From a virus (taxonomy: Duplodnaviria; Heunggongvirae; Uroviricota; Caudoviricetes): 43,481 nucleotides of DNA. The position numbers and the translations under genes were made by a program. Under the pieces are notes generated by a model. It did no database searches. It was not told the origin of the DNA and saw only the letters and a list, made by a program, of their open reading frames with translations. The number at the start of each line of letters is the position of its first letter. Within the stretch, counting starts at the first letter, position 1. Location of the stretch: IMG/VR virus record IMGVR_UViG_2711768000_000011; one strand, given 5' to 3'. Below, one piece after another: positions 2,794 to 43,200 of the stretch.

Positions 2794-5386
2794 TTGCATA
2801 TTCCTTAGCCCAGCGGGGCAGTGATAACGTCTTAATAGCTGGCCATTCATCGGTATTGAGGCAGTCAGCCAGGGTTCGCAGATTGCGGTGATATTCCAGC
2901 TGACCTGCCAGTTTTGCTTCTTCGCCCATCATGAAAATTTCAACCGGATAACGTCCGCATTCAATAGTTGTGCTGGCAACCAGAAAAACGAAAGTTGGCT
3001 GCACTCCAAACTGTGCTTCATAACCGTCACTGTAGAATGCATCCTGAACGTGATAGCGGTAGTCGTAATAAGCGGTTTTGAATCGTTGAATATCCGCCGT
3101 AGTTTTCACGTCCATGATCCAGTGAAATTCAGGGATAATTTTGTCCGGACGGCACCGACACAAAATTGCTGTTTCAGGATCTTCCCAGTAAATTGATGAT
3201 TCAGCGTGTCCGGCGCTTTCAACAAGCCATTGCCCCAGCGGCAAAGCCATAACGCTCTGATACATGAGTTCAATTTTCCGGCCTTCTTCGGCAGTGATAA
3301 CCGTTTTTCCTGTGCTTGCGCATTCCCTCAGAAACGCTTTCTCTTCTTCTTTTCCGGAGTTTGTCCGGCGGTTAAATTCAGGTGCTACGATAAAGCGGTT
3401 ACTGAATTCTTCCGGCTCAAGTACCCGGCAGTGGAAAGCGGTTCCTAAATCGAGCGTTTTTGTCTTTGTGGTGTCCACGGGGGCATTTTTACGCCACAAA
3501 TACAGTGCCGGAGTATCAGCAATGTCATCGAGCTGAGACTTACTGACACCGGGACCCGCGTGGTAATTCTCATTCGAAATTCCGTAATAAATACCTGGCT
3601 CTATGTCTTCTACGATTACGGGATCTGCGACTTCGCCAGTTTCATCACTGCAATCGCGATGCGGATCGCTGCCAGCATTCTCATTGTGCGGATGTTCAGC
3701 GCCTTCCATTTCCTCCGGATCATTTTCCTTAGCTTCAACCTGACTCTCTTCATCGAATGTTTCCTGGTATGTTGCGTCGCCCATCACCGCACCACAGTCA
3801 GGGCAGTTATCCCCGCCAGTCTGGCCGCAGGCATTGCAGGCTATTTCCGGTTCCTGTTGCACTACTGGCTCAGGTTGATTCATATCCGGGCTGGTTTTTT
3901 CCGTTTCTGGCTGGTTCTGGTACACACAATCGCGAGTCTGGATCCCCTTTACCCATTTCGGATCGTTCGGGTCGCTAATTCCGTCAACAAATTCACCACG
4001 TGATGCAGCAAGCAATTTATCGGCATCGACAGGATTTTTTGATGGAATGTTTTTCCGGGCTTCATGGAGTTCTGCCCGCAGTTCCTGATATTTCGCATCA
4101 ACAGAATTTACCTGTGACTGAGCATCCAGCGGCTGCGTGTCCTGATGATGTTCAGTTGCGTCCGGTTCCATTGTTTCAGCCTCTCCCTGTTCAACTGCCG
4201 TTGTTCCAGATGGTTGCGGTTTTTCTTCATCATCCTGTTTTCCTTCTTCTGTTACTCGCTGCGGCATCGGGGCAGAGGAGCGACCGCAGGCAATATCCAC
4301 GATTTCCGGATCAGGGTTGGCATGATCGGTTTCAGTCAGTACTTTGTTCAGATATTCAGTGACGTGCGCGGGGATGACCTCGATCCCAATTGGTGCTTCT
4401 TTTACGGACGCAACCACGATGGCGCGGGAATAATCCAGCCCGCCAGGCATGGTGATGAATTTGTCGCGGAAAACAGAAAAGGGCGGTTTATTTTCAGCGA
4501 TAATTTCCTCAATGCGTTTAGCGTGTGCCGGATGAAGGTTATAGATGTCCAGATCCATTGAACGGGCCAGTACGCCAGTGGCTACGTCCCGCGCCAGTGA
4601 CGTCAGATCGTGTACGAAACCTTCGCCGCGATCGGTGAGGTTTCCGCCGCCAGCATTAGCACCGGAAGCCGTGCGAGTGATGTGTGAAACACGATTACCC
4701 TTCATCCACTCTTTTGTCAGCAGTCCTCGATCGGTGTAGTCAGCGTTCAGGTATGCTTCGAAAAAAGCAGTTATCAGTCCCAGGTTTGAATTACCAGGAT
4801 TAGGGAAAACTTTGTCAGTGTCACGAACCAGTTTGTGGAGTTCGCGAATTTCCAGCGGGTCGAGCAGGCTGGTTTTGTGGGAAACAGCCAGGGCAGTAAC
4901 AGCCGGTAGTTCTTCAGCCCGAGCAATGTGTAATGCCTGGAGTCCGTCGCGTGAAACGTGCGTTACCGGTTTTTCGCTGCCGTGTTGAGCAAGCCAACGA
5001 ATGGGCAGTTCCTGGCCAGAAATTGGGAGTAGCATATTCTCCTCAATCTCAGTCATGTCTTCGCCGTTGACGTTGGTATTGCCTTGATAGTGAGCGTTGT
5101 CTGGTGCTGCTCCCGGTTTTAGTTCCCATGTCATGGAGTCTTTGCTGAGTTGATAGCGTTCACTCCAGGTAAAATCGATCTCACCTTCAGCGGGCAGGTC
5201 ATTAACGACAGGAAAATTCGTGGCAACAGCTTTAAAATAGCTGCTCAGTTTTTTACCTGACTTAACGATCAGGTAGTCCAGAGTGGCACAGGTCGATTCA
5301 AAATCGTTGCTTGCCCACAGGACGACGTCAGGTTCACCGGATGATTTTTTCGCTTTCCGTAACAGGAAGAGTGGTTTTGTGCTCAT
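2786..5386 (-). CDS. recE: Exodeoxyribonuclease VIII RecE, 866 aa
   Basis: 866-aa ORF with acidic/proline-rich central region and C-terminal nuclease domain. Length and sequence recognised as Rac RecE; translationally coupled to recT. Confidence 0.9.
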
Positions 5387-10226: not shown

Positions 10227-10278
10227 NNNNNNNNNNNNNNNNNNNNNNNNNNNNNNNNNNNNNNNNNNNNNNNNNNNN
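10227..10278. other. Assembly gap (52 N)
   Basis: Run of N characters. Confidence 1.
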
Positions 10279-10302: not shown

Positions 10303-11064
10303 ATGGAGACTGTTTTTGACGCACTGAAAGCAATGGGAAAAGCCACATCCATAGAACTTGCTGCGCGACTTGATATCAGTCGTGAAGAAGTGCTGAACGA
10401 ACTATGGGAACTGAAAAAAGCTGGTTTCGTTGATAAAAGCGCGTACACCTGGCGTGTGGCTGATAACAACGTTCAGCAGGAACAGCCAATGCAGGCAGAA
10501 CTGCCGGAAGAAACCACCACGGCAACTGTAGTGAAAATCTCAGAGTGCGATTTAACCGCGACGATTGAACAACGCGGACCACAAACGGCGGATGAACTGG
10601 CTACGCTGTTCGGTACAACATCCCGCAAAGTTGCTTCAACGCTGGCAATGGCAATCAGCAAAGGACGCCTGATTCGCGTAAACCAGAACAGTAAATTTCG
10701 TTACTGCATGCCGGGCGATAATTTACCAGCAGAGCCGAAAGCTGCATCGGTAGCGGAAACTGATGGTAAAGCCTTTCCTCAGCCAGCCGGTGTTGCGTTA
10801 CCAGTACAGGAAGCGGCAACACAGGAAGATATTAAAACAGAAACTGTGGCGGACATTGTGCAGTCGCTGCCATCGTTTACTGAAACGCAAGCGGATGACC
10901 TAGTTTTACCATCGCTGCATATGGCAAACCGCGAACTGCGTCGGGCGAAAAATCATGTCCAGAAGTGGGAGCGAGTCTGCGCCGCGCTGCGGGAGCTGAA
11001 CAAGCACCGGGATATTGTCCGACAGATTGTCGATTCCTCCAGTCGTATTGTGTCGGAAAAGTGA
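10303..11064 (+). CDS. Hypothetical protein with two winged-helix-like segments and a C-terminal coiled coil, 253 aa
   Basis: ATG 10303 with GGGAGG SD just after the gap. Function unknown. Confidence 0.6.
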
Positions 11065-11079
11065 TTGCCGGAGGCGCTT

Positions 11080-11496
11080 ATGGCAAAAGTTTTTACACAG
11101 GAAGAGCGTGAAAAAATTAAGGAGCAGGTTGTTGAGTTGGTACGCCAGAGTGGGCGCGAGACGTTAAGGCAACTGGAGGCCAAGACAGGTGCGACAAGAT
11201 ATCTGATGAGCATTCTTGCCAGAGAGTTGGTTGCCAGTGGCGATGTATACAACTCTGGCTATGGGTTATTCCCGTCTGAACAGGCTCGTAAGGATTGGAA
11301 AAACGCCCGCAAAAAACTATCCAGGGCAAAGGTGAAAAAAACGGTTGTGGTTGATCCTGACCTTATCTGGTCATTACCAGACGGAGAAATACGCCGCTAT
11401 GACAGGCGTCAGAACATAATCTGTCGCGAGTGCCGGAAGAGTGAAGTTATGAAACGTGTACTGGCATTTTATCAAGGAAATCTTCGGTATTTATAG
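11080..11496 (+). CDS. Hypothetical basic protein, about 138 aa
   Basis: ATG 11080 preceded by GGAGG. Contains CxxC (ICRECRK). The track start 11065 overlaps the previous stop. Confidence 0.55.
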   Translation: MAKVFTQEEREKIKEQVVELVRQSGRETLRQLEAKTGATRYLMSILARELVASGDVYNSGYGLFPSEQARKDWKNARKKLSRAKVKKTVVVDPDLIWSLPDGEIRRYDRRQNIICRECRKSEVMKRVLAFYQGNLRYL

Positions 11497-11634
11497 ACGT
11501 TACTAGATCAAAGAGCATTAGTTCATATGTAAATTGACATTTTTCTGGCACAGGGGAGAGCTAGCGTGGTTGTCCGCTTTGTGCCAATAGCGGACATTGC
11601 TGGCTCATGGTATGTTAGTTTAAGGAGGCAGGTT

Positions 11635-12657
11635 ATGCCCTGTATTTCGCTGTGGTATAATAGTTGCGCAATTGATACAAGGGAGCGTTACATCGTGAAA
11701 ATTGTTTTCGAGGTTAATGGAAAGAAAGTTCCACTAAAATCTTTAAAATACATAAGCAAAAAAGATCAACTCGAAGTAATGAAAAACTGGTTCTTTGAAA
11801 ACTTTGAAGATCCGGCAAATGCTTGTCCGTATGAAAGTAGAGAAGGTGGCTATGCTTACATATATGGCGGGCCGTATGATGCGAGCGAAGAACTACAATC
11901 CATCTTCGGTCAATATGTTAAATCTGAGTATATTGAGGAATTAGTAGATGAATTACAAACACAATGTTTTGACTGGTCTGGAAACTCAAATAATATAGAT
12001 GATTGGTACGATGATGATATCTACGACGCTGTAACGTCTTCCGGTAATCCGTATTTAAAATTCATTGATAATATCGATAAAATAAAAAAACTTGCAAAAG
12101 ATAAAACTGAACAACAGCAAAAAAACCACTTGCTTAGTTTGCTCTACACGAATGTTATTACAGCTTTGGAAACGCTTTATGTTGAGCTATTCATTAATTC
12201 TATAGAGAAAGATGATGTCTACATAGCCAATTGTATAGAAAAAGGTAAGACTGAATTTAAAGTAAGCAAAGATATTGCTGCGTTGCCTTTCAAGGGTGAA
12301 CCCATCGAGAAAATTAGGGGAGAGCTAATCAGGTCAATCAAGGAACACTTGATCAGTGCAAGCTGGCATAGCACTAAAAAGGTAATCGACCGCTATGAAG
12401 CTACATTCGATATAAAAGTACAAAAAGACTGTCCGATAGAAGCTATTGAATTGGCAACCCTCAATCGAAATCACTTAGTGCATCGTGGTGGAAAGGATAA
12501 AGAAGGGAACCTCGTAGTGATTACAGACCAGGATCTTGAAACGCTGATTGAAAATGCATCGAACCTGGCAATTATGCTCTACAACAGTTTAAATGTAGCA
12601 ACGAATAAAACCACCATTTTGCAACCAGATGACAAACCGTTCATTCATGAATTTTAA
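11635..12657 (+). CDS. Cassette gene A: hypothetical low-GC protein with an Rx4H (HEPN-like) motif RNHLVH
   Basis: Start ambiguous: ATG 11635 with AAGGAGG SD, or GTG 11695 with GGGAG SD. Coding region is about 35% GC. Acidic N-terminal half and helical C-terminal half. No recognisable phage function. Confidence 0.7.
   Translation: MPCISLWYNSCAIDTRERYIVKIVFEVNGKKVPLKSLKYISKKDQLEVMKNWFFENFEDPANACPYESREGGYAYIYGGPYDASEELQSIFGQYVKSEYIEELVDELQTQCFDWSGNSNNIDDWYDDDIYDAVTSSGNPYLKFIDNIDKIKKLAKDKTEQQQKNHLLSLLYTNVITALETLYVELFINSIEKDDVYIANCIEKGKTEFKVSKDIAALPFKGEPIEKIRGELIRSIKEHLISASWHSTKKVIDRYEATFDIKVQKDCPIEAIELATLNRNHLVHRGGKDKEGNLVVITDQDLETLIENASNLAIMLYNSLNVATNKTTILQPDDKPFIHEF
11653..11661 (+). promoter_or_regulatory. 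Candidate extended -10 (TGgTATAAT) upstream of or within the start of cassette gene A
   Basis: Motif seen directly; a perfect TTGACA lies at 11534-11539. Conflicts with the ATG 11635 start, so either the promoter or that start is wrong. Confidence 0.3.
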
Positions 12658-12672
12658 TAGCGCAGGTCATAC

Positions 12673-13674
12673 ATGGATATTCGCACACGAAAGACAAAAT
12701 TTTTAGAGTCGTTAGATTCAACTGAAGTGATACGCAAAGCAGTAAGTCTCGCTATAGATTGCATTATTGATAATCATAATAGTAATGAAGATACCCCCTT
12801 AGTTATTACCAGCTATGATGATCTCTGTAGAATCCAGGTGCTAAATTATGTACAGGAGTTTTGCGAAGCTGCATTCCCTGATATGGATGAATATTACTTT
12901 AGTCCTAACATACTTCGCATCAACGGCAAGACTAGTGAAGAAGCTTGTATTAACTTAATTAAACTCTTAAGAAGTACAAAAGGCATGCTATTCTGGTCCG
13001 ATGCCCCATCGTGGTTCGCTAGCCTCCCCGACGGATTATTCCATGTTGTTAACATTGATCAAAAAATCGTTACTCGCGGCCTTAATAAGAAAAACTCTAA
13101 GCCGACAATAATCAATAAAGATTACAGTGTAGATACACTACTATCAGAGCTATTTTTGAATGGCGCACACATGGAGCAACCCAACGTACACAACGTTTCT
13201 GAGGGAAACATGAAGTTCTATGATGAATGCCATGCTGGATTAATCAGACCAATACCCGCTCCAATAGGCGCGTCATACGATGAAGAGATCACAATTAATT
13301 CTCCAGATTGGCAAAAGCTCGCGTGTGTAGCTTTACGCCGCTATCAGTCGAAGGAATGTCATGACGGAATGCAATGGGATACAACCGATCATGGTTGGAC
13401 TGATGTAATCGCGTATCCATTCGTCGAAGAAATACAATCAATGGATAATAGTGGTTATCGACAATGTTTAGTTGGGCTGGTCACAATAAACAATTCAAAT
13501 GCAAATTCTCCGTACCTATCTACCGTTTGGATACATCCATTTTATCGCAGGAGAGGGTTATTAAGTAAGTTATGGCCAAAATTACAAGAGTTATATGGAA
13601 GTAACTTCGAAATTGAGCGACCTAATGAAAATATGAAAGCATTTCTGAAAAGTGCGAAACACGCAGATTACTAA
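12673..13674 (+). CDS. Cassette gene B: hypothetical low-GC protein, 333 aa, with a weak GNAT-like motif near the C-terminus
   Basis: Starts 15 nt after gene A stop, so likely co-transcribed. C-terminal LVGLVTI...HPFYRRRGLLSKLW resembles a GNAT beta-strand plus motif A, non-canonically. No recognisable phage function. Confidence 0.7.
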   Translation: MDIRTRKTKFLESLDSTEVIRKAVSLAIDCIIDNHNSNEDTPLVITSYDDLCRIQVLNYVQEFCEAAFPDMDEYYFSPNILRINGKTSEEACINLIKLLRSTKGMLFWSDAPSWFASLPDGLFHVVNIDQKIVTRGLNKKNSKPTIINKDYSVDTLLSELFLNGAHMEQPNVHNVSEGNMKFYDECHAGLIRPIPAPIGASYDEEITINSPDWQKLACVALRRYQSKECHDGMQWDTTDHGWTDVIAYPFVEEIQSMDNSGYRQCLVGLVTINNSNANSPYLSTVWIHPFYRRRGLLSKLWPKLQELYGSNFEIERPNENMKAFLKSAKHADY

Positions 13675-14235
13675 TTTATGAATCAGTCTGTGGAGTTAGG
13701 GTTGGTGTGAACAAGTAGGGTAAGAGCCTCAACGTGATGCTATGCCGACCTGCTCCCTGAGAATTCACACAGAAGGCTGCTAGCAATGTCTGCAGATCGC
13801 TCAAAGCGGACTAAAATGTTGGCTTGTTTCTGACTTAGAGCATTTAAGGAAGTGCTGGTGGTGACTGGTTGTTGTGTTCCATTTCTACAGAATAAAATCA
13901 CAGAAACTATACCCAATAGTTGTATTGAATCACTGACGAGACAGCCTCATATTTATCAGGACTGGTGTGCGTCTAATACAGGGGGTTGTCGTGCTGGTTC
14001 TCAAATGTGCGCTGGCTATTGCGGCTGTAATGGCAATTTATTGTCTTGCTGTTGTTCTTATGGAGCGGCTTTCTGATTGATTACATACTGGCTAGAAAAA
14101 AGGTGTTACCTTGGTTTATCTTTGTCCGGCAAGGTGCGCTCATTAATCTTAAGTAAATTTATTGCTCAAGTATTCAGATTACTTCTTATGGTTGAAGTCT
14201 CCTGTCAATGTAGAACCAATATATTTACAAAAATG

Positions 14236-14265
14236 AGACCCGTCGGGGATAGCCCTGCCGGGTCT
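14236..14265 (-). terminator. Rho-independent terminator for the YeaR-like gene
   Basis: AGACCCG ... CGGGTCT 7-bp stem, followed on the minus strand by CATTTTTG, immediately 3' of the gene stop. Confidence 0.55.
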
Positions 14266-14294
14266 GACTGTTAAAGCATTTTTAATATGATCAT

Positions 14295-14633
14295 CTATTT
14301 TTTGGTGCTATAGACTTTTTCGCCCGAAAAGTCTGGAGCGACCCAAAAGTTAATATTAAACTGAGCATCATCGCTTAGTTCAACACGGTGCCAGTATTGT
14401 GGTGGGCTTGTTGCAAAAGCGCCAGCATTAATGACTACTTTTATCTCCGGTTCAGTAGCATTCTCATCAGTAAAACCATAATATGTTACAGTGCCTTCCA
14501 TTACGCACAACTGCCCAAAAACACCTGCTGCTGTATTATGATGTGTTAATAACGCTGAAGGTACGTTCTCTTTTGTGAAGAACGGAGTTGAGCGTTTGAT
14601 TACCCAATCTTTAGGAATTCTCTTGTGTGTCAT
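14295..14633 (-). CDS. YeaR-like DUF1971 (cupin-like) protein, 112 aa
   Basis: ATG 14633 preceded by GGAGGAGG. Pattern RSTPF...G...V..G.V.YYGF.DE...EP...V.....FA..PP..WH......FNI.F.V.P matches recalled E. coli YeaR. Transcribed opposite to flanking phage genes. Confidence 0.65.
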   Translation of the reverse strand: MTHKRIPKDWVIKRSTPFFTKENVPSALLTHHNTAAGVFGQLCVMEGTVTYYGFTDENATEPEIKVVINAGAFATSPPQYWHRVELSDDAQFNINFWVAPDFSGEKVYSTKK

Positions 14634-15446
14634 AACCACCTCCTCCAAAACATGCATTAAAAATGCATCTTTTGGAGGGTTATGTCAAGCTGTTATGAAA
14701 CACATAATTGATATGTTGATTAGAGGAGAAGATAGAATAAATATGGTTGTTTTTCGTATAACTATTTGTTTTACTTTTAGTTTATGCATTCTGTGTGTTA
14801 GGAATAAGTTATTAAAGTTTAATCAAAAAATCTCGATGTAGTCCACATAGATTACTGTTACTGAACCTTATTGTGTGTATTAGTTGTGTTCTGAAATTTC
14901 AGCTTAATTATTTATGATGTATTTTTTAACGATAAATATTTTCCCAGGATACCTTTACTGTGTATATAAATAAATTATATACGCATAAATAATGTAAAGG
15001 CGTCCTTTTAGATATATCTTATCAAATGTTAATGACTTGAGTGGGAAATATGATTCCAGCAACTTATCATGTGGCTACTTTATAAAAATAATGCCCATAT
15101 AAAACAACAAGCGAAAAGGATTACGGATAAAAAAGGAGCGAGATGTGCGAACTTGTTATTTTCCATGTTTAACCACCTTAAATAATTGATGATGACGGGA
15201 TGATTGCATCTGTAATGCTTTTATTGAAATGTTATGATAAAAAAGAACTTTTGCATAACATTAAAATGTAATTTATCTAATCGTTTTTAATAATAAGTGT
15301 CGTATTTCTATCCTTGTACCAGCTATTTGATATGTAGTGTTTGTTCATGCTATGTGGGGCTTTACACCATAGCCAGTTTATTTATACTTTATTCGTCAGC
15401 CTGAACAACTGGCATCTGCTGCGCTGCGCCATCGAGAGATTGAGAA

Positions 15447-16046
15447 ATGGCGCATATACAACTGGTCAAACAAACCTCTTCTGGTTTACTTCTCCCGGCG
15501 ACGCCGGAGAGTTGCGATTTTCTGCATCAAATCAAAATAGGTGAGTGGATACACGCAGACTTTAAGCGTGTGCGTAACTACGCATTCCACAAGCGTTTTT
15601 TCAAACTCCTGCAACTGGGATTCGATTACTGGACTCCGGTCGGTGGGGCGATCACGCCTCGCGAACGAGAACTGCTGTCTGGTTTCGTTGATTACCTGTG
15701 CGAATCAGTTGGTCGGGAACACACGCCAGCCCTGAGTGATGCCGCAGAGCAATACCTTAACACCGTTGCGACTCGTAGAACCCGGGATACGGCGTTGCTA
15801 AAGTCGTTTGAGGCTTTCCGCGAGTGGGTAACCATTCAGGCCGGATTTTACACCGAGCATATTTATCCGGACGGTAGCCGTGGGCGTCGGGCAAAATCCA
15901 TCGCTTTTGCGAATATGGACGAAGTCGAGTTTCAGCAGGTTTATAAATCTGTACTGAATGTGCTGTGGAACTGGATTCTGTTCCGTAAATTCTCCTCTCA
16001 GGAGGAAGTTGAAAATGTGGCCGCACAACTACTGGAGTTTGCGTAA
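15447..16046 (+). CDS. Conserved lambdoid nin-region protein (DUF1367-like), 199 aa
   Basis: ORF preceded by 0.8 kb of AT-rich non-coding DNA. Family assignment is from memory only. Confidence 0.6.
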   Translation: MAHIQLVKQTSSGLLLPATPESCDFLHQIKIGEWIHADFKRVRNYAFHKRFFKLLQLGFDYWTPVGGAITPRERELLSGFVDYLCESVGREHTPALSDAAEQYLNTVATRRTRDTALLKSFEAFREWVTIQAGFYTEHIYPDGSRGRRAKSIAFANMDEVEFQQVYKSVLNVLWNWILFRKFSSQEEVENVAAQLLEFA

Positions 16047-16336
16047 TGGTGAATTTACGTAAAGCGGCTAAAGGCCAGATGTGCCAGATCAGAATCCCTG
16101 GCTACTGCAATCACAATCCCGAAACCTCTGTGCTGGCGCATTACAGGCTGGCGGGGACGTGCGGAACAGCGACAAAACCACATGATATGCAGGCGGCGAT
16201 AGCCTGTAGCTCATGCCACGATCTAATCGACGGGCGGGTAAAAACCAGCGATTACACCAAAGAAGAATTGCGCCTGATGCATGCTGAAGGGGTTTTTCGC
16301 ACACAAGAAATCTGGAGAAAGAAAGGTCATTTATGA
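16046..16336 (+). CDS. YbcO-like (DUF1364) putative nuclease, 96 aa, Cys-rich
   Basis: Cys cluster CQIRIPGYC...CSSCHD. Start overlaps the upstream stop (TAATG). Confidence 0.6.
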   Translation: MVNLRKAAKGQMCQIRIPGYCNHNPETSVLAHYRLAGTCGTATKPHDMQAAIACSSCHDLIDGRVKTSDYTKEELRLMHAEGVFRTQEIWRKKGHL

Positions 16337-16875
16337 TTTACCCAACGAATACAGGAAAAAGCGGAGAACACCTTCGCCTCACCACGCTGGAAAGTGTCTG
16401 GATTCAGGGAAAACTACGTATGTGGGGGCGCTGGTCGTATATTGGCGGTGGCAGGTCAGGGAATATGTTCAATCAGTTGTTGGCATCCAAAAAACTGACG
16501 AAAACAGCCATTAATGAAGCCCTGCGCAGAATGAAAAAAGCGGGAATAGAGAAAGCTGAGCTGGAAGCGTTTTTGCGAGAGATGATCAACGGCAAGCAAA
16601 AGAGCTGGCTGGCGCATTGTACTGATGCAGAGGCGTTATGTATTGATCGAGTCATAAGTGAGGTGCTGGCAGAGCATCCAGGATTGATTTGCATTCTCCG
16701 GCAACGCTATGAAGGGCGGGGGATGACTAAGCGCAAAATGGCTGAATTGCTAAATGATGCACACCCAGAGTGGTGTTTTAGCACATGCGAAAAACGGATT
16801 GCTAATTGGTTAGCTGTTGCTGAGTATGCCCTATATATTCCCATGCGTGAATCATTTGCTGAGAAAATGGCTTGA
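16333..16875 (+). CDS. Hypothetical protein, positional candidate for late-gene antiterminator (Q-like), 180 aa
   Basis: Last gene before a strong terminator and the lysis module, as for lambda Q. ATGA overlap with the upstream gene. The functional call is positional only. Confidence 0.4.
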   Translation: MIYPTNTGKSGEHLRLTTLESVWIQGKLRMWGRWSYIGGGRSGNMFNQLLASKKLTKTAINEALRRMKKAGIEKAELEAFLREMINGKQKSWLAHCTDAEALCIDRVISEVLAEHPGLICILRQRYEGRGMTKRKMAELLNDAHPEWCFSTCEKRIANWLAVAEYALYIPMRESFAEKMA

Positions 16876-16954
16876 TTTCTTACGTATAAACTGCTTCAAT
16901 TTTGCTATGCTTCGCAAAGCTGTATCGCGAGGCGGATTGCAGACATGGACATCG

Positions 16955-16982
16955 TAAAAAAACCGCTTAATGCGGTTTTTTT
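16955..16982 (+). terminator. Rho-independent terminator (AAAAAAACCGC-uuaau-GCGGTTTTTTT), candidate tR'-like
   Basis: Perfect GC stem flanked by an A-run and a T-run, so possibly bidirectional. About 80 nt after the Q-like gene. Confidence 0.8.
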
Positions 16983-17302
16983 ACGTCAGGAAAGCAGGGG
17001 AGAATGCTGCTAGTTGGGCAACTGGTCTTTCTGCTCCAAATTATAACAGAGACCAGTTATAGTTTCGGTGCTGTGTTTTTTTTACAATATTGTGATAACA
17101 CATTGCTGGCGGGAGTTTTGATATTTCTTGGCAGGGGCTGATGATGCGTTATCCTGATGTCGTCAACTCATATAAAATGAGATGAGAGATCATTGCAGGG
17201 TGGTTTGTAATTCGCTGTTTAGCGGGACAATATGTTGTCTGATACAAGACACCCGACGCCTCAGATTACTATAATAAAGACGAAGCATCCTTTGTATTGA
17301 CC

Positions 17303-17328
17303 AACCGCCTGTTTAGGCGGTTCTTTTT
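17303..17328 (+). terminator. Rho-independent terminator (CCGCCTGTTTAGGCGG + TTCTTTTT)
   Basis: 6-bp stem with 4-nt loop and a T-run. A TATAAT at 17270-17275 lies about 30 nt upstream. Confidence 0.65.
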
Positions 17329-17860
17329 GGGCTGGTTTATTGTATGCCAAATGATTATTAAAAAGGTTGTGTTAATAACAAGATCCGAAATAATATGCCT
17401 GCATATTTTTATCTTGCTTATATTCTGCATATTGTGCATAGCAGGCTCATCCCTGCAATCAAAACTGTATGATGAGTATTTTTTGTTTTCCTTTTTTCCA
17501 GTCATCTGATGATGACCTGCTTCTTTTTAATCCGGATCGACATCAGTTTTTTAAGATAATTCCTGCGAGTTATATGCATAAATGCCACAAACTCCGCATT
17601 TTATGTGGTTGGGAGTTGCCGGGCGCGCAGTGAGTTTGCTAAGAAAACTCCTGCATGGTGAATCCCCCTGTGCGGTGGGGTGATACCATTAACCTTTTCT
17701 GTCGCCGACAGGTATCACGAACATTTTGTTCACCGGGAGGCACCCGGCACCATGCACTTCAATAGATTCTCTCCACATTATGGATATTCTTTCAGAATAT
17801 CCCACGCAGACTTTGTGTAAATGTTAACAAATGTGCGTTTTATTTGATCTGATTCGCTGT

Positions 17861-17890
17861 TTGAGCGTCCAAAACAACGGTATATATAAT
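17861..17890 (+). promoter_or_regulatory. Candidate sigma70 promoter for the first lipoprotein gene (-35 TTGAGC, 18-bp spacer, -10 TATAAT)
   Basis: Motifs at 17861-17866 and 17885-17890, about 30 nt upstream of ATG 17920. Confidence 0.4.
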
Positions 17891-17919
17891 CCTTTACTAT
17901 ATGACATATGTGAGGAAAA

Positions 17920-18348
17920 ATGGGTTTTCGTAGCGCATCAATTCTTACGTTGATTATTAGTGGGATTATTATCGGGTGCACTGATGCTGTATCGACAAAT
18001 TATCATGACCGTACATCATATTACTCCGATAAAGCAATAGAGACACAGTATGTGAGTTCATCTGAACGTACTTCTGATGTTAGTGAGGATATCCGTCTGT
18101 ATGCCCATCAAATCAAGAGCGCCATCGAAAAACAGTTCGGGGATGCGAGTAAGTATTCAGGAAAAGAGTGTACACTGAGAATGCATATGGCCCCGAATGG
18201 CCTTCTACTGGAGGTTAAAAGAGAAAGTGGAGACCTCGATTTATGTCGTGAAGCGATGAATGCGATAAAGAATGCTGATATACCTGCCCCCCCTTCGCCG
18301 GAAGTATATAAAGTATTTCAAAATGGGGTGCTGGATTTTAAACCCTGA
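17920..18348 (+). CDS. Predicted lipoprotein, 142 aa (lipobox IIGC)
   Basis: Signal peptide and lipobox. C-terminal region is paralogous to the next gene (shared C.L.M...G, PEVY.FQ.G.D motifs). Confidence 0.7.
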   Translation: MGFRSASILTLIISGIIIGCTDAVSTNYHDRTSYYSDKAIETQYVSSSERTSDVSEDIRLYAHQIKSAIEKQFGDASKYSGKECTLRMHMAPNGLLLEVKRESGDLDLCREAMNAIKNADIPAPPSPEVYKVFQNGVLDFKP

Positions 18349-18498
18349 TATTTATTGTTTTGTAATAAACGGTTTCGGCTTAGGTTTGTTCTGACACAGC
18401 TACGGCACTGAGCTAAATTTAGCGGATAGTCAGCTCTGAGCCAGTGGCGGACGTAACAACTACTATTGCTGAGATTTTAATGGATTGAGGAGCAAGAA

Positions 18499-18894
18499 GT
18501 GGGATTAAAGAAAATCGTTATGTTGACTTTTTGGGTCGGTTTTGTTGCGGGATGCACACCTTTACACCCTTCAGATTGCCACAAAACTACTGCTACAGGT
18601 AGTTGCAGTTCAGGACGCTGGGATGATCAGGATGAATGGGGGGCGCAAGCGCGGGGAATCAGAGCTGCAATTAATGCCAAACTTGATGAGCCGCATAACT
18701 GGAAAGGGAAAAAATGCAGGTTGCATATGGAATTCTCTCAGGATGGCACGGCGTTAAAAATATCTACCAGTAACGGTGATAAAGCCTATTGCGAAGCGAT
18801 AAAGTCCGCAGCTCATAAAGCCAAATTTCCGGCCTTCAACAATCCGGAAGTCTACAGAGATTTTCAGAAATCTGGCTTTGACATGCGAGGTTAG
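18499..18894 (+). CDS. Predicted lipoprotein, 131 aa (lipobox VAGC), paralogue of the previous gene
   Basis: GTG start with GAGGAG SD. Signal peptide MGLKKIVMLTFWVGFVAGC. Conserved C-terminal domain shared with 17920-18348. Confidence 0.65.
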   Translation: MGLKKIVMLTFWVGFVAGCTPLHPSDCHKTTATGSCSSGRWDDQDEWGAQARGIRAAINAKLDEPHNWKGKKCRLHMEFSQDGTALKISTSNGDKAYCEAIKSAAHKAKFPAFNNPEVYRDFQKSGFDMRG

Positions 18895-38955: not shown

Positions 38956-39693
38956 ATGACACAGACAGAATCAGCGATTCTGGCGCACGCCCGGCGATGT
39001 GCGCCAGCGGAGTCGTGCGGCTTCGTGGTGAGAACACCGGAGGGGGAAAGATATTTTCCCTGCGTGAATATTTCCGGTGAGCCGGAGGAGTATTTCCGNN
39101 NNNNNNNNNNNNNNNNNNNNNNNNNNNNNNNNNNNNNNNNNNNNNNNNNNNNNNNNNNNNNNNNNNNNNNNNNNNNNNNNNNNNNNNNNNNNNNNNNNNN
39201 NNNNNNNNNNNNNNNNNNNNNNNNNNNNNNNNNNNNNNNNNNNNNNNNNNNNNNNNNNNNNNNNNNNNNNNNNNNNNNNNNNNNNNNNNNNNNNNNNNNN
39301 NNNNNNNNNNNNNNNNNNNNNNNNNNNNNNNNNNNNNNNCTGGCGGGAATTGAGATGCCAGATTTTCATCGTGAGGACGACTGGTGGCGTAATGGTCAGA
39401 ATCTCTATCTGGATAATCTGGAGGCTACAGGGCTGTATCAGGTGCCGTTGTCAACGGCGCAGCCGGGCGATGTGCTGCTGTGCTGTTTTGGTTCATCGGT
39501 GCCGAATCATGCCGCCATTTACTGTGGTGACGGCGAGCTGCTGCACCATATTCCTGAACAACTGAGTAAACGAGAGAGGTACACCGACAAATGGCAGCGA
39601 CGCACACACTCCCTCTGGCGTCACCGGGCATGGCACGCATCTGCCTTTACGGGGATTTGCAGCGATTTGGCCGCCGCATCGACCTTCGTGTGA
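38956..39693 (+). CDS. K: Tail assembly protein K (lambda gpK-like), interrupted by assembly gap
   Basis: N-terminus MTQTESAILAHARRCAPAESCGF and C-terminal part recognised. The middle is replaced by N 39099-39339. Confidence 0.75.
   Translation: MTQTESAILAHARRCAPAESCGFVVRTPEGERYFPCVNISGEPEEYFXXXXXXXXXXXXXXXXXXXXXXXXXXXXXXXXXXXXXXXXXXXXXXXXXXXXXXXXXXXXXXXXXXXXXXXXXXXXXXXXXLAGIEMPDFHREDDWWRNGQNLYLDNLEATGLYQVPLSTAQPGDVLLCCFGSSVPNHAAIYCGDGELLHHIPEQLSKRERYTDKWQRRTHSLWRHRAWHASAFTGICSDLAAASTFV
39099..39339. other. Assembly gap (241 N)
   Basis: Run of N characters. Confidence 1.
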
Positions 39694-40238: not shown

Positions 40239-43200
40239 TGCAAANNNNNNNNNNNNNNNNNNNNNNNNNNNNNNNNNNNNNNNNNNNNNNNNNNNNNNNN
40301 NNNNNNNNNNNNNNNNNNNNNNNNNNNNNNNNNNNNNNNNNNNNNNNNNNNNNNNNNNNNNNNNNNNNNNNNNNNNNNNNNNNNNNNNNNNNNNNNNNNN
40401 NNNNNNNNNNNNNNNNNNNNNNNNNNNNNNNNNNNNNNNNNNNNNNNNNNNNNNNNNNNNNNNNNNNNNNNNNNNNNNNNNNNNNNNNNNNNNNNNNNNN
40501 NNNNNNNNNNNNNNNNNNNNNNNNNNNNNNNNNNNNNNNNNNNNNNNNNNNNNNNNNNNNNNNNNNNNNNNNNNNNNNNNNNNNNNNNNNNNNNNNNNNN
40601 NNNNNNNNNNNNNNNNNNNNNNNNNNNNNNNNNNNNNNNNNNNNNNNNNNNNNNNNNNNNNNNNNNNNNNNNNNNNNNNNNNNNNNNNNNNNNNNNNNNN
40701 NNNNNNNNNNNNNNNNNNNNNNNNNNNNNNNNNNNNNNNNNNNNNNNNNNNNNNNNNNNNNNNNNNNNGGAAAAAGACATCACCATTAAGGGCAAAACCA
40801 CCTCGCAGTATCTGGTCTCGGTGGTGGTGGATAACCTGCCTCCGCGCCCGTTCAGTATCCGGATGCGCAGGATGACACCGGACAGCACCACAGACCAGCT
40901 GCAGAACAAAACGCTCTGGTCGTCATACACCGAAATCATCGATGTGAAACAGTGCTACCCGAACACTGCACTGGTCGGCGTACAGGTGGACTCGGAGCAG
41001 TTCGGCAGCCAGCAGGTGAGTCGTAATTATCATCTTCGCGGGCGCATTCTGCAGGTGCCGTCGAACTATAACCCGCAGACGCGACAATACAGCGGTATCT
41101 GGGACGGAACGTTAAAACCAGCATACAGCAACAACATGGCCTGGTGTCTGTGGGATATGCTGACCCACCCGCGCTACGGCATGGGGAAACGTCTTGGTGC
41201 GGCGGATGTGGACAAATGGGCGCTGTATGTCATCGGCCAGTACTGCGACCAGTCAGTGCCGGACGGCTTTGGCGGCACGGAGCCGCGCATCACCTGTAAT
41301 GCGTACCTGACCACACAGCGCAAGGCGTGGGATGTGCTCAGTGATTTCTGCTCGGCGATGCGCTGTATGCCGGTATGGAACGGGCAGACGCTGACGTTCG
41401 TGCAGGACCGACCGTCGGATAAGGTGTGGACCTATAACCGCAGTAATGTGGTGATGCCGGATGATGGCGCGCCGTTCCGCTACAGCTTCAGCGCCCTGAA
41501 AGACCGCCATAATGCCGTTGAGGTGAACTGGATTGACCCGGATAACGGCTGGGAGACGGCGACAGAGCTTGTGGAGGATACGCAGGCCATTGCCCGTTAC
41601 GGTCGTAACGTCACGAAGATGGATGCTTTTGGCTGTACCAGCCGGGGGCAGGCACACCGCGCCGGGCTGTGGCTGATTAAAACAGAACTGCTGGAAACGC
41701 AGACCGTGGACTTCAGCGTGGGCGCAGAAGGGCTTCGCCATGTGCCGGGCGATGTCATTGAAATCTGTGATGATGACTATGCGGGTATCAGCATCGGCGG
41801 GCGCGTGCTGGCGGTAAACAGCCAGACCCGGACGCTGACGCTCGACCGTGAAATCACGCTGCCATCCTCCGGTACCATGCTGATAAGCCTGGTTGACGGA
41901 AGTGGCAATCCGGTCAGCGTGGAGGTTCAGTCCGTCACCGACGGCGTGAAGGTGAAAGTGAGCCGTGTTCCTGACGGCGTTGCTGAATACAGCGTGTGGG
42001 GGCTGAAGCTGCCGACGTTGCGCCAGCGCCTGTTCCGCTGTGTGAGTATCCGTGAGAACGATGACGGCACGTATGCCATCACTGCCGTGCAGCATGTACC
42101 GGAAAAAGAAGCCATCGTGGATAACGGGGCGCACTTTGACGGCGACCAGAGCGGCACGGTGAATGGTGTCACGCCGCCAGCGGTGCAGCACCTGACTGCC
42201 GAAGTCACCGCAGACAGCGGGGAATATCAGGTGCTGGCGCGCTGGGACACGCCGAAGGTGGTGAAGGGGGTGAGCTTTATGCTTCGCCTGACCGTGGCAG
42301 CGGATGACGGCAGTGAGCGGCTGGTCAGCACGGCCCGGACGACGGAAACCACATACCGCTTCACGCAACTGGCGCTGGGACGGTACACGCTGACAGTCCG
42401 GGCGGTAAATGCCTGGGGACAGCAGGGCGATCCGGCGTCGGTATCGTTCAGGATTGCCGCACCGGTAGCACCGTCGCGGATTGAGCTGACGCCGGGCTAT
42501 TTTCAGATAACTGCCACGCCGCATCTTGCGGTTTATGATCCGACGGTACAGTTTGAGTTCTGGTTCTCGGAAACGCGGATTACCGATATCAGGCAGGTTG
42601 AAACCACAGCCCGCTACCTTGGCGCGGGGCTGTACTGGATAGCCGCCAGTATCAATATCAAACCGGGCCATGATTATTACTTTTATATCCGCAGTGTGAA
42701 CACCGTTGGCAAATCGGCATTCGTGGAGGCCGTCGGTCGGGCGAGCGATGATGCGGAAGGTTACCTGGATTTTTTCAAAGGCAAGATAACCGAATCCCAT
42801 CTCGGTAAAGAGCTGCTGGAAAAAGTTGATCTGACGGAGGATAACGCCAGCAGACTGGATGAGTTTTCGAAAGAGTGGAAGGACGCTAACGATAAATGGA
42901 ATGCGATGTGGGGCGTCAAAATTGAGCAGACCAAAGACGGCAAACATTATGTCGCGGGTATTGGCCTCAGCATGGAGGACACGGAGGAAGGCAAGCTGAG
43001 CCAGTTTCTGGTTGCCGCCAATCGTATCGCGTTTATTGACCCGGCAAACGGGAATGAAACGCCGATGTTTGTGGCGCAGGGCAACCAGATATTCATGAAC
43101 GACGTGTTCCTGAAGCGCCTGACAGCCCCCGCCATTACCAGCGGTGGCAGTCCTCCGGTATTTTCCCTGACATCAGACGGAAAGCTGACCGCTAAAAATG

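Follow-up and report, generated by a model that had tools for sequence, protein, structure and literature searches.

Independently assorting modules and a candidate HEPN/GNAT-fold anti-phage cassette at the Ren-like–NinB-like junction of Rac/Qin-type lambdoid prophages

Introduction

P2 and P4 prophages carry defense hotspots, fixed places between conserved phage genes that hold alternative, low-GC and mostly defense-related cargo (Rousset et al., 2022, PMC9122126; Vassallo et al., 2022, PMC9519451). Here we describe a slot of this kind in IMG/VR virus record IMGVR_UViG_2711768000_000011 (Caudoviricetes), whose whole stretch of 43,481 nucleotides (nt) is hereinafter called the window; it lies within the 4 kb at 11500–15446 that an earlier note made from the sequence alone (the original prediction) had flagged as a variable island. 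Unlike the P2 and P4 hotspots, this slot belongs to Rac/Qin-type lambdoid phages, sits at the junction between the genes for a Ren-like protein (DUF977) and a NinB-like protein (DUF1367), and has its cargo bracketed by two conserved 24-bp palindromes. A description of neither the slot nor the 24-bp sites was found in the literature searched, a search that was not exhaustive for lambdoid hotspots. We read the region as a set of independently assorting modules at this junction, namely a slot with a likely anti-phage cassette that codes for a HEPN RNase and a GNAT-fold partner, two mini-genes, a DUF1971 module and phage backbone, and we assign this reading as a whole a probability of roughly 0.7 (coordinates in Table 1).

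Results

A chain of independently assorting modules

The window is a Rac-type lambdoid prophage of Escherichia coli. Its stretch from 11400 to 15500 matches E. coli JP538 and a dozen further strains at 100%; in JP538 the prophage is integrated next to ttcA, with intR-xisR-ralR-recT-recE-racC-kilR-sieB, repressor genes and ydaT-ydaU-ydaV-DUF1627-DUF977 to the left of the flagged region and DUF1367-DUF1364-DUF1133 (Q-like), two TolA-like genes and lysis genes to its right. In PHROGs, DUF977 is classed as a Ren-like exclusion protein and DUF1367 as a recombination mediator (NinB/Orf), which makes the flagged 4 kb the counterpart of the lambda ren–ninB junction, where the replication module, which ends with DUF977, meets the nin-like module, which starts with DUF1367 (at 15447, as had been proposed). 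The low GC content ascribed to this region was confirmed: at 0.376 (window overall, 0.464; flanking backbone, 0.49) it is the minimum among 3.9-kb stretches, and its composition is not uniform. The part described as very AT-rich, 14658–15446, has a GC content of 0.305, ranking 14th (essentially lowest) of 3,952 windows of 789 bp, whereas the supposedly GC-normal spacer to its left proved intermediate (0.43–0.48).

When the region and its parts were searched for one by one in 5,426 complete E. coli genomes, the whole 4.1 kb was recovered in 13 genomes, the two-gene cassette in 205, the backbone block 13797–14095 in 1,758, the DUF1971 gene in 453 and the whole AT-rich tract in 462; the right half of this tract (370 bp) is present in a further ~366 genomes at about 77% identity, giving 850 in all. 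Across ~230 phage and prophage loci the order of the parts is constant: DUF977, cargo, ORF29 (optional), hok and/or DUF1971 (optional), ORF28 and DUF1367, where ORF28 and ORF29 are short open reading frames (ORFs) that we describe below. These widely differing frequencies and many combinations of parts, together with the fixed order with optional modules, bear out the idea of a mosaic accessory region assembled from several insertions. Alignment against related prophages placed the insertion junctions at ~11596 (between ~11485 and 11600 by BLAST against related loci), ~13797, 14095, 14298 and 15079. The units are accordingly bounded differently from those originally proposed, and the variable DNA ends at ~15079 and not at 15446, the final 370 bp being conserved phage backbone. 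The flagged 4 kb thus consists of independently assorting modules in series and is not one island. In the otherwise identical strains O78 strain 3, MB56 and A65EC, the region is broken by IS2, ISSen4 and IS1 insertions.

A prophage hotspot after DUF977

The interval on the DUF977 side (~11596–13796 in the window) was never empty in the 136 loci compared, which hold 47 cargo types of 0.9–6.8 kb with a mean GC content of 0.40. Cargo identified by annotation or Pfam, in many cases as known defense genes, includes IteA/IteS, AbiH, a SMODS cyclase, GmrSD, AIPR, and SIR2 with an adenosine deaminase and an NTP pyrophosphatase; further cargo codes for a 1,210-residue YobI-type ATPase, SMEK, DUF4209/DUF7380, FRG, Beta_protein, DUF5677, GIY-YIG and KilA-N. 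Conserved flanks around many alternative cargos, known defense genes among them, make the slot a prophage accessory/defense hotspot, an ordinary kind of object. A purely defensive role is opposed by the few non-defense cargos that the slot also takes up, namely QueH, NUDIX with HAD, a BCCT-like transporter and insertion sequence (IS) elements.

The HEPN/GNAT-fold cassette

In the window the slot is occupied by two genes preceded by a candidate promoter with an extended −10 element. The product of the first has the four-helix HEPN fold and the catalytic Rx4-6H motif, here R258-N-H-L-V-H263 (Rx4H), which is invariant among 46 aligned homologs. Against PF18870 (HEPN_RES_NTD1) it scores 22.2 bits, under the cut-off of 27.4, and PF18735 (HEPN_RiboL-PSP) gives no match; among homologs at 30–70% identity many carry both domains, and the UniRef cluster is named RiboL-PSP-HEPN. 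The product of the second gene adopts a GNAT fold (Pfam Acetyltransf_1: 19.9 bits against a cut-off of 20.7), and its acetyl-CoA loop, YRRRGLL, has an invariant arginine (R292) and lacks the second G/A of the motif Q/R-x-x-G-x-G/A. Sequence searches of the Protein Data Bank returned no match for either protein. An Aeromonas copy of the cassette, located inside a Thoeris/TIR/SIR2 island, has the gene pair with an identical 15-nt gap; DNA similarity to it begins at 11636, just 5′ of the −10 motif, which there reads TGaTACAAT.

Given the many known anti-phage systems that occupy this slot elsewhere, the most likely role of the cassette is that of an anti-phage system, expressed in the lysogen and of an abortive-infection or toxin-like kind. 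The HEPN RNase would then act as the effector, and the GNAT-fold protein might serve as its regulator, its sensor or a second effector. Distant relatives of the GNAT-fold protein adjoin genes of another HEPN family, Abi_2, in two cases and lie in a defense island in one, and the Abi_2 neighbors hint at a recurrent functional link between the GNAT-fold family and HEPN nucleases. The Abi_2 (AbiD/F-type HEPN) genes in question adjoin the distant homologs of Marinomonas and Shewanella vesiculosa.

Several points count against a joint defense system. PADLOC 2.0 detected no significant named system (three chance-level matches for the HEPN protein, E 0.011–0.031; none for the GNAT-fold protein), and NCBIfam 2026 gave nothing for the former and one chance-level match for the latter (E 0.048, far under the cut-off). 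The HEPN gene is solitary in P4-like and other elements, as is the GNAT-fold gene in an integrative and conjugative element and in a Mu-like prophage, and the two could be separate single-gene systems. It is also conceivable, if unlikely, that the pair is a toxin–antitoxin addiction module that stabilizes the prophage instead of acting on phages; however, both proteins are large (320 and 333 residues), each is found alone elsewhere, and defense systems dominate the context of both the slot and the Aeromonas copy. Addiction and anti-phage roles are not mutually exclusive.

A HEPN-only homolog (74% identity) lies on a Dickeya contig at 4837–6200. It has a diverged copy of the left leader and CTTTGTGCCA-AGAGCGGAC upstream and GTCCGCTTT-TCGCT downstream; its neighbors are a ParE/HTH pair and an integrase, with no DUF977 gene.

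Palindromes at the cargo boundaries

The backbone leader that follows the DUF977 stop codon runs at a pairwise identity of 0.83–0.98 up to a palindrome with the general form GTCCGCTTT-GTGCCA-AnAGCGGAC, 74–82 nt 3′ of that codon. A second palindrome, GTCCGCTyy-TCGCTC-AAAGCGGAC, stands across loci at the start of the 300-bp backbone block. Loci sharing an identical 85-nt left leader and differing in cargo diverge immediately 3′ of GTGCCA, and pairwise identity falls from 0.9–1.0 in the backbone to 0.6–0.7 over the 10–12-nt arm and then to the random level of 0.25–0.3. In 28 unrelated cargo types the arms contributed by the cargo follow 5′-RRAGCGGAC...GTCCGCTYY-3′, with one G invariant at both ends (28/28). 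The spacer depends on position, the first site having GTGCCA in 79/81 loci, the last a TCGCTC-like spacer in 77/77, and the internal sites mostly GTGCCA (six sites). As the reverse complement of TCGCTC (GAGCGA) agrees with GTGCCA at 4/6 positions, the two sites can be read as relatives in opposite orientation. In the arrays of three loci, a common first cassette with co-varying arms (GCAGAC...GTCTGC) precedes a bare GTGCCA site of 24 bp, after which each locus has a different second cassette. Inverted 9-nt arms, a 6-nt spacer constant by position, and breakpoints at the spacer constitute the core-site geometry of site-specific recombination of the tyrosine or serine recombinase type.

By analogy with integron arrays and pdif modules, cargo may be exchanged by recombination at these boundary sites. 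The strongest version of this idea, which we put forward tentatively and hold to be somewhat unlikely, is that Rac/Qin-type lambdoid prophages carry a cassette-exchange system in which a site-specific recombinase would swap cassettes at 24-bp 9-6-9 sites with GTGCCA on the left and TCGCTC on the right. No recombinase gene was found between DUF977 and DUF1367 in any annotated locus, and no inverted cargo was seen; covariation between the arms was observed in one cassette family and was not significant overall.

A different account, which falls short of being probable but has to be taken seriously, treats the palindromes as RNA or DNA hairpins resembling repetitive extragenic palindromic (REP) elements, acting as insulators, mRNA stabilizers or terminators, with the cargo swapped by ordinary homologous or template-switch recombination. 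Besides the absence of a linked recombinase gene, it is favored by the distribution of the family GTCCGCTTT-N6-AAAGCGGAC, a dense intergenic repeat of some Hyphomicrobiales and Xanthobacteraceae genomes (~17 copies in 8 kb, with varied spacers) that weighs against a dedicated exchange site and favors a generic hairpin or REP-like role. Unrelated palindromes also take the right boundary in a few cargo types (35, 40, 45), and a paralogous site with a flank like that of the left site lies between the TolA-like genes of the window. Set against this account are the 28 unrelated cargo types, each with its own degenerate arm facing an invariant spacer and with sharp breakpoints; the strict tie between spacer class and position; and the arrays with bare internal sites followed by different second cassettes. 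Moreover, the backbone arm shows no compensating change when the cargo arm varies, and hairpin pairing is therefore not what is kept. No U-run follows the sites, and the left site has only one or two copies per E. coli genome, always at this prophage slot, so that it is not a REP in this host.

The alphaproteobacterial contigs carry (AT)GTCCGCTTT-N6-AAAGCGGAC(AT) as a very abundant intergenic repeat with the spacers GTGCCA, GGGTCA, GGGCCA and others. In a set of species-representative genomes the full palindrome was present in 70/131 exact 15-mer matches, from a genome-wide scan partly swamped by chance matches and these same repeats. Since the palindrome family recurs in distant Proteobacteria, machinery for exchange, if it exists, could be widespread. 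The paralogous site in the window (18429–18452, GTCAGCTCT-GAGCCA-GTGGCGGAC), between the TolA-like genes at 17920–18348 and 18499–18894, is preceded by 50 nt of DNA paralogous to the left cassette leader; sites of its class are present in 21 further loci, and it may mark a second cassette slot. In Pantoea sp. AS142, two GTGCCA-type sites of the same orientation (1420 and 5047), 3.6 kb apart, enclose ORFs of 594 and 450 residues, an example from beyond E. coli of a cassette with left-type sites at both ends. Two promoter readings of the left leader were discarded: the spacing in TGGCAC-N-GC is off by one for sigma-54, and its TTGACA has no acceptable −10 element for sigma-70.

Two conserved mini-genes

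The 300-bp block that begins at the right boundary site is unannotated; it is followed by hokD-rem in phages of the Qin type and by DUF1971 in those of the Rac type. A cysteine-rich ORF of 74 codons had been singled out here, but 1-nt indels break its frame in homologs, and the frame that is conserved is that of ORF29, at 13991–14080. The Cys-rich ORF has no Pfam or PHROG match and is absent from a collection of 15 billion proteins; its reading as a microcin-like peptide was rejected on account of the broken frame. ORF29, in turn, shows 11 synonymous changes out of 24 (26% expected) and conservation above that of its flanks; its ribosome-binding site is GGGGG, 5 nt upstream, in the window and AGGAGG in most copies. 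It is retained at 68% amino-acid identity in phage HannyBb though the upstream sequence differs there.

At the other end of the region, DNA from 15079 rightward is backbone common to phages with IteAS or relBE-hokD to its left. The AT-rich tract had been taken for non-coding DNA with no ORF over 25 codons; its left 445 bp are instead the upstream region of DUF1971 and its right 370 bp are backbone with a small gene, and ORFs of 28–38 codons are present, one of which, ORF28, is conserved. ORF28 is intact in 124/124 copies (25 distinct DNA versions), with 28% of its sites variable as against 78–95% in the flanks and an enrichment of synonymous changes (p=0.02). Frame and ribosome-binding site also persist in a second clade, at about 77% nucleotide identity, in which the 7/28 residues that differ are all hydrophobic-for-hydrophobic or in the polar head. 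Between ORF28 and DUF1367 we noted a conserved, imperfect 19-nt inverted repeat (15223–15267, 79% complementary), which may be an operator for divergent promoters, and a conserved promoter-like TTTACA-16-TATACT (15361–15388) upstream of DUF1367 and hence of the ninB-like operon.

ORF28 and ORF29 each code for a polar end and one transmembrane-length hydrophobic stretch, and the peptides would be type-I-toxin-like or small membrane proteins. Both are absent from the 15-billion-protein collection and from PHROGs, have no protein-family match, and did not turn up in the Qin and DLP12 stretches of K-12 that were checked; ylcH is unrelated. The case for coding is weakened by its reliance on fairly similar sequences and by modest statistics (p about 0.02–0.03), that for toxin-type loci by the lack of any antisense RNA or Rfam family in the island (E-value mode over 11000–18000, STnc100, outside the island, being the sole solid match); RNA structure around ORF29 shows almost no covariation (term −0.77), which is uninformative. 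A convincing conserved promoter on the opposite strand was likewise not detected at either ORF.

These weaknesses, together with the very short length of the ORFs and their lack of a call in any database, leave some room for the view that neither is translated and that an RNA or DNA regulatory element (leader, operator or small RNA) is what is conserved; predicted folds around ORF29, which include its long conserved upstream region, do pair its ribosome-binding site and start codon. We regard this as improbable, because clades at 68–77% identity share the frame, its length, the start codon and a strong ribosome-binding site, third codon positions carry the most changes with synonymous ones enriched, and both ORFs encode a polar end and a hydrophobic stretch. 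Furthermore, the two frameshifted copies of ORF29 also have a damaged ribosome-binding site.

The DUF1971 module and the AT-rich tract

The minus-strand gene for a YeaR-like DUF1971 protein was recovered as predicted (PF09313, E=2.6e-26; 91.9 bits, gathering threshold 23.1); its product is not a full TehB (48.8 bits against 303). Of the terminator attributed to it at 14236–14265, the hairpin itself is real (−19.4 kcal/mol on the minus strand, followed by a U-run; −22.6 on the plus strand) and, given that U-run, a plausible terminator for DUF1971; it is, however, homologous to the hairpin after hok in related prophages and so not simply built for DUF1971. Probably it terminates in both directions, on DUF1971 and on rightward read-through from the left. 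The linker that contains it takes the position occupied by hok in related phages. Its reading as the remnant of a hok gene was rejected, as similarity is confined to the hairpin and about 30 nt, the hok and mok reading frames are lacking, and tblastn with HokD found no hok in the island. In strain AR_0067 a hok truncated to 41 codons (3424–3549) abuts the 3′ end of DUF1971 and shares the terminal hairpin, an intermediate between the hok-type arrangement and that of the window. Upstream of DUF1971, a leader hairpin with a 17-bp stem (14642–14678, minus strand; −30.4 kcal/mol, z=−6.5) pairs with the ribosome-binding site and may be a translational control element; it is weaker in a 92%-identical relative and partly eroded in strain AR_0067.

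H-NS prefers horizontally acquired AT-rich DNA, and known H-NS binding data come from K-12. The original prediction had suggested that the AT-rich tract is an H-NS-bound silencer of the island and of the downstream nin/Q operon. A GC content of 0.29–0.34 over about 800 bp (14634–15446), the minimum of the window, is compatible with H-NS binding, and 17 of 70 loose motif matches fall inside the island, which makes up 9% of the window. Nonetheless, over the window as a whole the high-affinity motif does not exceed chance (70 matches, 58 ± 8 expected), and the local excess follows from base composition. The right 370 bp of the tract, moreover, are not foreign filler: they belong to the conserved backbone and include a gene and a promoter-like site. 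The left 445 bp always accompany DUF1971. On balance we consider such a silencer doubtful. In the K-12 Qin and DLP12 stretches examined there is no homolog of 13797–14095, 14096–14294, 14634–15079 or 15080–15446.

Other features of the window

Masked N runs occur at 10227–10278, 39099–39339 and 40245–40768; the first of them joins ydaV to the DUF1627 gene as an artificial ORF of 422 codons, the window being 262 bp shorter there than JP538. Past the Q-like gene and ahead of the first TolA-like gene, Rfam gives a solid match to the small RNA STnc100 (17623–17809, plus strand; 86.6 bits, gathering score 47, E=4e-18). Directly after the Q-like gene, a perfect 14-bp stem at 16953–16985 (CGTAAAAAAACCGC / GCGGTTTTTTTACG) looks like a tR′/6S-type terminator on which Q acts, with weak matches to isrK on both strands (16909–16982, plus; 16956–17037, minus).

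Table 1. Features of the region between DUF977 and DUF1367 in the window.
Feature	Coordinates	Strand	Remarks
Backbone leader after the DUF977 stop codon	11497–11571	+	Near-identical in loci with unrelated cargo; includes TTGACA (11534–11539)
Left boundary site, GTCCGCTTT-GTGCCA-ATAGCGGAC	11572–11595	.	9-6-9 palindrome, 24 bp; conservation stops sharply right after the spacer
Candidate cassette promoter, extended −10 TGgTATAAT	11653–11661	+	TATAAT at 11656–11661; read from sequence
HEPN gene, 320 residues, WP_014639476	11695–12657	+	HEPN/RES N-terminal domain 1 and RiboL-PSP-type HEPN domain
GNAT-fold gene, 333 residues, WP_000354966	12673–13674	+	N-terminal alpha/beta domain and C-terminal GNAT fold
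Right boundary site, GTCTGCAGA-TCGCTC-AAAGCGGAC	13788–13811	.	24 bp; backbone identity begins sharply at TCGCTC
Conserved backbone block, 300 bp	13797–14095	+	Unannotated
Cys-rich ORF, 74 codons	13852–14076	+	Most likely not a gene
ORF29, 29 codons, GTG start, (M)LVLKCALAIAAVMAIYCLAVVLMERLSD	13991–14080	+	Unannotated; intact in 142/145 copies
Linker ending in hairpin (about 14234–14268)	14096–14294	.	In place of the hok locus; resembles the hok 3′ hairpin
DUF1971 (TehB-N/YeaR-like) gene, 112 residues	14295–14633	-	Ribosome-binding site GGAGGAGGTGG; RefSeq annotates this shorter form
AT-rich upstream region of DUF1971, 445 bp	14634–15079	-	GC 0.29; travels with DUF1971 (gene in 453 genomes, whole tract in 462)
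ORF28, 28 codons, MENNKFAHLAPFLSVILFACCFIWALFL	15080–15166	-	Unannotated; AAGGTGG 6 nt upstream of ATG
Conserved intergenic backbone	15167–15446	+	Between ORF28 and DUF1367

Discussion

Three elements of the region appear to us noteworthy: an unnamed HEPN and GNAT-fold candidate system, two conserved mini-genes that have escaped annotation, and palindromes suggestive of site-directed cargo exchange. About 4% of complete E. coli genomes carry the candidate system, which also occurs in several other genera. The mini-genes occur in 16–32% of E. coli genomes, and if K-12 lacks both altogether, this would explain why small-protein surveys missed them. Were the boundary sites true recombination sites, they would explain the fast shuffling of immune genes by temperate phages and would provide a simple sequence signature with which new defense candidates could be harvested from thousands of prophages. 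For annotation, one wrong reading frame and one wrong island boundary have been corrected.

Comparison with described HEPN abortive-infection and toxin proteins places the cassette near HEPN/MNT toxin–antitoxin modules, HepS of Gifsy-1 and Tha of S. aureus (PMC11087260), with which it shares the HEPN fold, the invariant Rx4H motif, and prophage-encoded, stand-alone or two-gene organization. It differs from HEPN/MNT in its partner, which has a GNAT fold and no NTP_transf match and is thus not a minimal nucleotidyltransferase antitoxin. The mini-genes, for their part, resemble the toxin genes of type I toxin–antitoxin loci such as hok/sok: predicted products are small and hydrophobic (28–29 residues, as toxin candidates), their ribosome-binding sites are strong, they lie beside hok in the same phage region, and the long conserved region upstream of ORF29 is predicted to base-pair with its ribosome-binding site. 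Unlike hok/sok, they have no sequence similarity to Hok and belong to the backbone and not to the cargo.

With REP elements and bacterial interspersed mosaic elements the boundary sites share a short GC-rich palindrome with a variable loop, highly repeated between genes, though this last only in some Alphaproteobacteria; in E. coli they occupy one or two places per genome and lack the many copies of such elements, and the motif is presumably unlike the E. coli REP consensus. Integrons combine an intI tyrosine recombinase, attI and Pc with attC arrays, the attC sites measuring 55–140 bp between the boxes R″ (RYYYAAC) and R′ (GTTRRRY), and pdif modules are known from Acinetobacter. The slot differs from integrons in having no adjacent intI or other recombinase gene, and its sites differ from attC in measuring only 24 bp, or about 38 bp with flanks; attC-like extensions (...AAC/GTCCGC and GCGGAC/GTT..., the slash marking the edge of the core) occur in some cassettes and not in all. 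The arms also differ from what we take to be the XerC/XerD arms of dif. The likenesses to integron arrays and pdif modules lie in the organization: unrelated cassettes separated by short imperfect palindromes, sharp breakpoints at the site center, half-sites brought by each cassette, tandem arrays and, as in pdif modules, two flanking sites that are oppositely oriented relatives. If recombination at these sites does take place, its logic would resemble that of integron arrays or of recombinase-mediated cassette exchange with heterospecific sites.

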